Below are positions 22,419-22,452 of a DNA stretch of 64,000 bases, in pieces. Source of the DNA: an uncultured Candidatus Midichloriaceae bacterium (GTDB lineage: Bacteria > Pseudomonadota > Alphaproteobacteria > Rickettsiales > Midichloriaceae); NCBI GenBank assembly GCA_964625465.1, contig CAZVFD010000007.1, positions 1,347 through 65,346 of the forward strand. The letters are read 5' to 3'. The position numbers were made by a program, and so were the translations under genes. Below the pieces are notes generated by a model. That model ran no database searches. It worked only from the letters and a program-made list of their open reading frames with translations, and was not told where the DNA came from. Each line of letters begins with the position of its first letter. Positions within the stretch are counted from its first letter, which is position 1.

Positions 22419-22452
22419 AATTAACCAAAAATTAACCATTAATAAGTAGAAT
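22419..22452 (+). promoter_or_regulatory. CtrA-box-like direct repeat (TTAA-N7-TTAAC) plus -10 hexamer
   Basis: AATTAACCA-AAA-ATTAACCA (22419-22438), then 8 nt, then TAGAAT (22447-22452), then 28 nt to the ATG at 22481. The same architecture occurs at 43737, 59248, 34438(-) and 62656. Confidence 0.65.

Follow-up and report, generated by a model that had tools for sequence, protein, structure and literature searches.

A CtrA-type box at a fixed distance from the -10 hexamer precedes ankyrin-repeat and lineage-specific genes in a Midichloriaceae-related Rickettsiales symbiont

Gene regulation in uncultured Rickettsiales symbionts is almost beyond the reach of experiment, and a clean promoter type offers a handle on it that needs nothing more than sequence. 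A 64,000-nt stretch of DNA from an uncultured Candidatus Midichloriaceae bacterium (GCA_964625465.1, contig CAZVFD010000007.1, positions 1,347 to 65,346; hereafter the window) contains five copies of a 34-nt block in which a tandem TTAAC repeat, resembling the binding box of the cell-cycle response regulator CtrA, is followed at a fixed distance by a -10 hexamer. Four of these blocks precede genes for ankyrin-repeat (ANK) proteins or lineage-specific ORFans. We asked whether the blocks are promoters, which protein would read them, and what their distribution says about the genes they serve. In our judgement the five elements are probably promoters that depend on phosphorylated CtrA (CtrA~P), with a CtrA box in place of the -35 hexamer.

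An initial annotation of this DNA had listed the five sites with their coordinates and spacings. We re-read them from the sequence and all agreed (Table 1). At the four strong sites, the general form was AATTAACCA-N3-ATTAAC(C/T)A, then 8 nt, then TAnnnT, with an ATG 28-37 nt downstream of the hexamer. These four are exact TTAAC-N6-TTAAC boxes with a period of 11 bp, and their half-sites read TTAACCA or TTAACTA. Site 5 is weaker, with a degenerate second half-site (TTTAC), and no open reading frame (ORF) lies downstream of it. An AGG or GGA Shine-Dalgarno-like motif precedes each start codon, in the window and in relatives (-10-to-start distance, 28-37 nt). The boxes can lie tightly against the preceding gene: the first half-site of site 2 contains the stop codon (43740-43742) of a glycosyltransferase gene, the site 3 box begins right after the murJ stop codon (59245-59247), and the site 5 box overlaps the stop codon of its upstream gene (62655-62657). 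No terminator was found between the upstream gene and the box unit at these three sites.

Table 1. Promoter blocks, predicted transcripts and target genes. Window numbering is used here and throughout; predicted starts assume that the A of TAnnnT is position -11 and that transcription begins about 7 nt after the hexamer. PWM, position weight matrix.
Feature	Position	Strand	Sequence	Basis or remark
Site 1, CtrA-type box	22419..22438	+	AATTAACCAAAAATTAACCA (AATTAACCA-AAA-ATTAACCA)	sequence reading, PWM
Site 1, TTAAC half-sites	22421-22425, 22432-22436	+	TTAAC	predicted positions -38..-34, -27..-23
Site 1, -10 hexamer	22447..22452	+	TAGAAT	8 nt after box; 28 nt to ATG 22481
Site 1, predicted transcription start	~22459	+		predicted from -10
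Site 2, CtrA-type box	43737..43756	+	AATTAACCA-TTT-ATTAACCA	sequence reading, PWM
Site 2, -10 hexamer	43765..43770	+	TATGCT	predicted start ~43777; 28 nt to ATG 43799
Site 3, CtrA-type box	59248..59267	+	AATTAACCA-AAA-ATTAACTA	sequence reading, PWM
Site 3, -10 hexamer	59276..59281	+	TACTAT	predicted start ~59288; 29 nt to ATG 59311
Site 4, CtrA-type box	34420..34439	-	TCTTAACTA-AAT-ATTAACTT	sequence reading, PWM
Site 4, -10 hexamer	34406..34411	-	TACGCT	predicted start ~34399; 37 nt to ATG 34368
Site 5, CtrA-type box	62656..62675	+	AATTAACTGTTTATTTACTA (AATTAACTG-TTT-ATTTACTA)	sequence reading, PWM
Site 5, -10 hexamer	62684..62689	+	TACACT	sequence reading; predicted start 62695-62696
Site 1, aligned block		+	AATTAACCAAAAATTAACCA-TTAATAAG-TAGAAT	
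Site 2, aligned block		+	AATTAACCATTTATTAACCA-GTTTAAAG-TATGCT	
Site 3, aligned block		+	AATTAACCAAAAATTAACTA-AGTTGCAT-TACTAT	
Site 4, aligned block		-	TCTTAACTAAATATTAACTT-TTTTAACC-TACGCT	
Site 5, aligned block		+	AATTAACTGTTTATTTACTA-TTTAGTAC-TACACT	
Auxiliary upstream box remnant	22387..22402	+	TTAACAAAATTGTAAT	34 nt 5' of site 1, start-to-start
Predicted short transcript from site 5, ~87 nt	62695..62782	+		3' intrinsic terminator
Target gene 1, 1014-aa clade-restricted protein with hydrophobic hairpin region	22481..25525	+		no Pfam family
Target gene 2, 405-aa acidic ORFan	43799..45016	+		no Pfam family
Target gene 3, 180-aa ankyrin-repeat protein	59311..59853	+		Ank_2, E = 4.5e-30
Target gene 4, 883-aa protein with C-terminal ankyrin-repeat array	31717..34368	-		Ank_2, E = 1.7e-44

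The block recurs well beyond chance, as the annotation had estimated: TTAACNANNNATTAAC occurred four times in the window against 0.03 expected, and none of 100 shuffles reached four. The pattern TTAAC-N10-TAnnnT had only four matches in the 64 kb, exactly the four strong sites, and we rejected the idea of additional half-site-only promoters because the pattern recovers just these full sites. A PWM built from the four strong sites scored site 5 at 23 bits and everything else in the window below 12. The bare TTAA-N7-TTAA core was not enriched (8 found, 7.5 expected), so that what sets these sites apart is the extended form of the half-sites and their fixed distance to the -10. All five sites fall within the 7.6% of the window that is intergenic, each pointing at a downstream feature. 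Sequence beyond the 34-nt block is unrelated from site to site, so that the block is a motif and not a dispersed repeated element.

Could these still be chance AT-rich matches, or remnants of repeated or mobile elements with no regulatory role? The genome has a GC content of 36%, the bare core is as frequent as expected, an 11-bp satellite, (ATTAACCATAT)n, mimics the box in one metagenome, and an IS1 fragment lies near site 4. Against this stand the excess of matches over expectation, the intergenic placement and uniform orientation of all sites, the narrow range of distances to start codons, the unrelated flanks, and the retention of boxes at orthologues whose proteins are only 43-57% identical, one of them in another gene neighbourhood. 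Together these effectively refute the idea, and we give it next to no credence.

One further sequence in the window, TTAATACAAACTTAAC at 27912-27927, matches TTAA-N7-TTAAC and lies upstream of an acidic 377-aa ORFan (27993-29126). It has poor extended half-sites, no TAnnnT at the canonical distance and a score below 12 bits, which leaves it as a weak candidate for a sixth site.

Site 2 is conserved in relatives. The 405-aa ORFan that follows it, whose start agrees with database entry P0121 (405 aa, identical sequence and length), has orthologues in four genomes at the identity given above. Its box was kept as TTAAC-N6-TTAAC, 8 nt, TAnnnT in loci L039 (from GCA_964558975.1), L040, L041 and L042, with no change in its distance to the start codon, although the bases around it have diverged. 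In GCA_044229535.1, the orthologue stands in a different gene neighbourhood and the box is still there. The 1014-aa ORFan downstream of site 1 had only three homologues among 1.84 billion representative proteins, and the two orthologues compared (L043 1850, L044 9938) carry the box as ATTAACCAAAAATTAACTA-N8-TA(G/A)AAT. An orthologue of the small ANK gene at site 3 has a box in L163 (7966-7933), a C-terminal homologue of the large ANK gene at site 4 has a half-degenerate one in L041 (5059-5026), and site 5 is conserved at L163 622-655. The box is thus conserved upstream of orthologous genes in the manner of an element under purifying selection. In sister genomes L036 and L037, where murJ is not followed by the small ANK gene, the murJ loci accordingly lack boxes.

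Relatives also carry the box at additional genes. Two of these are ORFans (L040 8020, L044 6125), and another is a type IV pilin-like gene with an N_methyl motif (L163 10050-10971). The pilin-like counterpart in L164 (8636-9504) has GTTAACTGTTTGTTAACTA, then 9 nt instead of 8, then TACAAT. The annotation had proposed a PWM scan, expecting the motif to be concentrated in intergenic DNA. In about 290 kb of clade DNA, 16 sites reached at least 22 bits, and these were indeed all intergenic and correctly oriented; 13 of the 16 were part of the training set.

What kind of protein would bind such an element? No sigma-70 -35 hexamer (TTGACA-like) was found 16-18 nt from the -10 at the box promoters, and they should therefore need an activator. 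A neighbouring housekeeping promoter, in contrast, has a canonical -35 element (TTGACT, 16 nt, TATATT at 62793-62820). An alternative sigma factor might instead recognize the whole block, with TTAACC as its -35-like element and TAnnnT as its -10. TTAACC equals TTGACA at four of six positions, it keeps a fixed distance from a -10-like hexamer, and an RpoH gene lies within the window. However, the TTAACC copies are 20 and 9 nt from the -10, neither of which is a workable spacing for the sigma-70 family, and the block does not fit the consensus of RpoH or that of FliA. Moreover, orthologues keep both copies of the 11-bp tandem repeat, the signature of a dimeric DNA-binding protein. We consider recognition by an alternative sigma factor very improbable.

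The lineage of the host narrows the choice of activator. Window GC content is 34-40%, and profile matches to HdaA-type Hda, Caulobacter-type FlgE and RpoH fit an alphaproteobacterium. Homologues of the window's MurJ are from Rickettsiales, the nearest named ones (endosymbiont of Acanthamoeba UWC8, Midichloriaceae, Midichloria and Bandiella) at 42-48% identity. The sister genomes are much closer, at 71-80% for MurJ and at least 90% for AlaS. Their loci contain U-box, ankyrin and Fic genes, and the more distant relative L164 has ankyrin, patatin and rvh-type type IV secretion system genes. This gene content fits an intracellular, effector-rich lineage.

In an alphaproteobacterium of the Rickettsiales, the sequence of the repeat points to CtrA. 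The published CtrA consensus comprises the 9-mer TTAA-N7-TTAAC and the 8-mer TTAACCAT. The half-sites described here match both, which bears out the earlier naming of the box as CtrA-type, and the 8-mer is present at sites 1 and 2, in keeping with the two occurrences noted by the annotation. At mapped promoters of R. sphaeroides, in agreement with C. crescentus, 23-24 nt separate the transcription start from the boundary of the box, and the A at -11 is invariant (PMC6180460); at the Caulobacter CtrA-dependent small RNA (sRNA) gene ccnA the box is at -23 (PMC8959179). At all five sites in the window, 12-13 nt separate the end of the box from the A of TAnnnT (predicted -10), which puts the 3' end of the box at -24 (TTAA) or -23 (TTAAC) on the predicted numbering. 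A CtrA-type box at the -35 position of activator-dependent promoters, in line with the activator layout that the annotation proposed, is therefore supported, in that the geometry equals that of mapped CtrA-activated promoters and the boxes are conserved at orthologues. A Rickettsia ctrA gene complements Caulobacter, which has been taken as a sign of a conserved binding site (PMC2877005), and CckA/CtrA are reported across Rickettsiales (PMC7397232).

Taken as CtrA-dependent, the five elements would be sigma-70 promoters that require an activator, with tandem TTAAC(C/T)A half-sites 11 bp apart replacing the -35 hexamer. A dimer of phosphorylated CtrA, a response regulator of the OmpR/PhoB family, would bind the two half-sites head to tail (-38..-34 and -27..-23) and recruit RNA polymerase to the TAnnnT -10, 8 nt downstream. 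Transcription would then start about 7 nt after the hexamer, giving a leader of about 22-30 nt that includes a Shine-Dalgarno sequence. As the boxes lie close to the consensus, the box genes would be expected to switch on jointly as CtrA~P builds up; if Ehrlichia and Caulobacter are a guide, this would happen in a late, non-replicating or transmissive stage. Within the window, the regulon would consist of the two ANK genes, the two lineage-specific ORFans and the conserved transcript of about 87 nt, to which the sister genomes would add further ORFans and the type IV pilin-like gene. In this scheme we infer that CtrA is the protein bound, where transcription starts, when the genes are expressed and that their products act on a host.

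Several observations weigh against CtrA in this role. Neither ctrA nor cckA nor chpT was seen in the window or in about 230 kb of relatives' DNA. A tblastn search of the window and the relatives' loci with Caulobacter CtrA returned only OmpR-family regulators at 27-34% identity. The classical CtrA targets flgE (49535) and hdaA have no box in the window, and several 20-kb stretches of sister genomes are without one, three of them with ANK or U-box genes. The clade also encodes another OmpR/PhoB-family regulator and Kdp-type sensors.

That regulator provides the main rival explanation, in which the box is bound by another winged-helix protein of the OmpR/PhoB family, such as the OmpR/PhoB-like protein encoded next to gatC or a KdpE-like one, and acts in the manner of a pho or PmrA box. 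OmpR/PhoB-family regulators such as PhoB and PmrA bind 10-11-bp direct repeats abutting the -10. Its gene in GCA_964558975.1 (L039 20631-21203) lies directly after gatC, and the product scored 147 bits for OmpR, 141 bits for PhoB and 100 bits for CtrA among NCBIfam models, with 32% identity to Caulobacter CtrA (tblastn local alignment). Kdp-type sensors are encoded in locus L040 (kdpD plus a second histidine kinase), and the clade shows more two-component regulators than classical Rickettsiales. However, the half-site TTAACCA matches the CtrA 9-mer and 8-mer exactly, whereas the PhoB half-site is CTGTCAT, that of OmpR is of the GTTACA type and that of PmrA is TTAATATT, none of which equals TTAACCA. 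The same strict box and spacing also occur in free-living, high-GC alphaproteobacterial DNA, including Bradyrhizobium, and a pilin-like gene is among the box targets. On balance, another family member as the binding protein appears unlikely, and CtrA remains our preferred candidate.

A scan with the strict 19-base pattern covered one genome from each of 185,579 species. There were 34 matches, eight of them alphaproteobacterial: two Rickettsiales metagenome-assembled genomes (MAGs), one Holosporaceae MAG, four other Alphaproteobacteria MAG hits and Bradyrhizobium. The unconstrained position in ATTAAC[N]A was C in 7/8 alphaproteobacterial matches vs 1/26 of the others (Fisher p = 1e-5). This bias indicates that the alphaproteobacterial matches are the same motif and the other matches noise. 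The strict box with its -10 recurs by preference in alphaproteobacterial genomes.

A metagenome pattern scan was mostly noise, and its informative part consisted of high-GC contigs in which the same box is followed by N8 and TAGCGT or TAGCCT. On one of these contigs, the box precedes a small gene and then an FtsZ-like reading frame, as read from its translation. Two groups of metagenome matches were rejected. About 27 contigs of one metagenome (Ga0126342; for example L065, L087, L094, L136 and L151) carry the 11-bp tandem satellite already mentioned, which mimics the half-sites; we guess that it is eukaryotic host DNA, and satellites of this type are a trap for motif-based scans. The other group was a conserved coding stretch in low-GC contigs. 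In alphaproteobacterial MAGs, L004 and L022/L011 have a strict box and -10 with no ORF within about 100 nt downstream, and these boxes could drive CtrA-dependent small RNAs in other AT-rich alphaproteobacterial lineages.

Within the window, site 5 is the box without a gene. Its predicted transcript would end at a terminator made of a 12-bp, GC-containing hairpin (stem 62748-62775) and a T-run. In the counterpart at L163 622-760, identity to the window extends over the box, the -10 and the initial 32 nt of the predicted transcript (TAATGGAACTAAAAGGGACAGTGGGTGGGGCA); the central part differs and has gained or lost bases, and another hairpin and T-run form a terminator of its own. An ATG is present at 62695, 6 nt after the -10, and opens a putative micro-ORF that reads MELKGTVGGA* in the window and MELKGTVGGAKVF* in L163. 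No Rfam family matched the transcript at gathering score, and the sole sub-threshold match was to the terminator hairpin on the opposite strand. From the two sequences compared, the product could be an sRNA or a leaderless micro-ORF.

Site 1 has an additional element upstream, the auxiliary box listed in Table 1. It is degenerate in the window (GTAAT), and its offset from the main box is about three helical turns. In two relatives (L043, L044), the auxiliary TTAA-N7-TTAAC is intact, about 45 nt upstream of their main boxes in the aligned sequences. The stretch that separates the divergent 98-aa gene/alaS from the 1014-aa gene includes a conserved block, and the element lies within it. Either an extra CtrA site, as at Caulobacter pilA, or a part of the divergent promoter may be involved.

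We then considered which genes the box serves. The initial annotation had held that every one was an ORFan with effector hallmarks. This stood in part: the gene-linked sites serve two ANK genes and two clade-restricted ORFans, and the statement fails for the short transcript of site 5 and for the pilin-like gene in relatives. The two ankyrin and two clade-restricted targets fit host-interaction genes. By a rough count, a quarter to a third of the approximately 52 ORFs in the window are ANK genes or have no assigned family, and the chance that all four gene-linked boxes would fall on such genes is about 0.01 (estimated by hand).

The further proposal that the box predicts effectors was also upheld only partially. 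Of the three ankyrin genes in the window, the one at 52454-54097 lacks a box, and the three ANK- or U-box-bearing sister stretches mentioned above likewise show that the rule is not universal. No CtrA-type box was found at an effector-like glycosyltransferase pair at 5744-8001. The link between box and effectors is non-exclusive in both directions, with a boxless ANK gene on one side and boxes on a pilin-like gene and a short RNA on the other. It is conceivable, though we would not call it the likelier outcome, that in this Midichloriaceae-related genus CtrA has been recruited as the main switch for lineage-specific host-interaction proteins (the ankyrin proteins and the membrane-hairpin or acidic ORFans) together with a pilin gene and a conserved sRNA or leaderless micropeptide transcript of about 87 nt, and that the box is an effector predictor, an alphaproteobacterial counterpart of the PmrA regulon. 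If that is true, effectors could be predicted from their promoters by a near-consensus box with fixed spacing to the -10. The box would mark ankyrin and ORFan genes that are expressed together, probably in a CtrA-high transmissive stage, and it yields a shortlist of effector candidates and one candidate regulatory RNA.

Other features of the window were noted alongside these genes. The glycosyltransferase pair consists of tandem paralogues (5744-6997, 7003-8001) with a DXD Gly_transf_sug region, one match being weak and one moderate. A second pair of tandem paralogues, at 25520-26689 and 26661-27845 (-), overlaps; each protein is about 390 aa with an N-terminal hydrophobic segment, and the one scanned (25520-26689) has a Glyco_trans_1_2-like C-terminal domain. 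FlgE (49535-52360) is unusually long at 941 aa, with a large central insertion, and has the same length in sister genome L036. A CADD-family protein (TIGR04305, putative folate metabolism; 31037-31708) adjoins the large ankyrin gene. The IS1-family transposase fragment near site 4 is truncated (34666-35091) and lies about 230 nt upstream of the site 4 promoter, which suggests a past rearrangement beside that gene.

Among known systems, the E. coli pho box has two 7-bp direct repeats with an 11-bp period that replace the -35 element about 10 bp upstream of the -10. The likeness is one of layout only: the pho box reads CTGTCAT-N4-CTGTCAT, whereas the box described here reads TTAACCA-N4-TTAACCA, and the pho box serves phosphate-starvation genes. 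The PmrA regulon of Legionella pneumophila and Coxiella burnetii is closer in its use. About 40 effector genes are activated by PmrA; Zusman et al. 2007 reportedly gave its tandem repeat sequence and its place abutting the -10. Both systems would combine a winged-helix regulator with a tandem TTAA-containing repeat next to the -10, and the PmrA motif has been used to predict Icm/Dot effectors. A Legionellales PmrA box was suggested by the 36% GC content, the ankyrin genes and the TTAA repeat at the -10. We rejected it, as the host is alphaproteobacterial and not gammaproteobacterial, the half-site is TTAACCA and not the PmrA sequence, and the regulator belongs to another lineage. Because the window is alphaproteobacterial, membership in the PmrA regulon is excluded, and the regulon is an analogue only.

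The CtrA sites of Ehrlichia chaffeensis and those predicted by consensus in Wolbachia are closer in descent, being from the same order and called with the same consensus. The E. chaffeensis CtrA regulon includes ompA, bolA, surE, gshA/B and gst, with promoters enriched in chromatin immunoprecipitation, and CtrA is linked there to infection-stage physiology. Unlike the boxes described here, those sites were called within hundreds of base pairs of the start codon (for example, gst at -181 to -166), and no constant spacing to a -10 was described. In the literature consulted, effector candidates of the ankyrin or ORFan type do not stand out among the targets, and PMC4426382 does not mention ankyrin. 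The families differ as well, as Ehrlichia and Wolbachia are Anaplasmataceae and the lineage described here is Midichloriaceae-related.

The closest match is to the CtrA-activated promoters of Caulobacter crescentus and Rhodobacter sphaeroides (fliQ, fliL, pilA site 1, ccnA and fla2), where TTAA-N7-TTAA(C) also lies over the -35 region. Those promoters were mapped by experiment, whereas the ones described here are read from DNA and their starts predicted from the -10. With that numbering, the distance from start to box boundary and the A at -11 are the same, and each promoter has a single near-consensus site. The CtrA promoter geometry of Caulobacter and Rhodobacter would therefore extend to an intracellular lineage that branches deeply and is rich in AT. 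In Caulobacter the -10 is GC-rich, whereas here it is an AT-rich TAnnnT, and both half-sites here are near the extended optimum TTAACCA, unlike those of Caulobacter and Rhodobacter. Target types overlap in part. A small transcript is among them in both cases (ccnA in Caulobacter, a predicted one here), and pilA, a textbook CtrA target, has a parallel in the pilin-like gene of the relatives. The remaining targets differ, being cell-cycle and flagellar genes in Caulobacter and Rhodobacter and mostly ankyrin and lineage-specific genes in this intracellular bacterium. The mechanism is not new; this Midichloriaceae-related Rickettsiales symbiont has CtrA-type promoters of the canonical kind, in an unusually clean form. 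What they appear to add to the Caulobacter and Rhodobacter examples is a conserved link to ankyrin and ORFan genes and a small transcript that is a candidate for control by CtrA.

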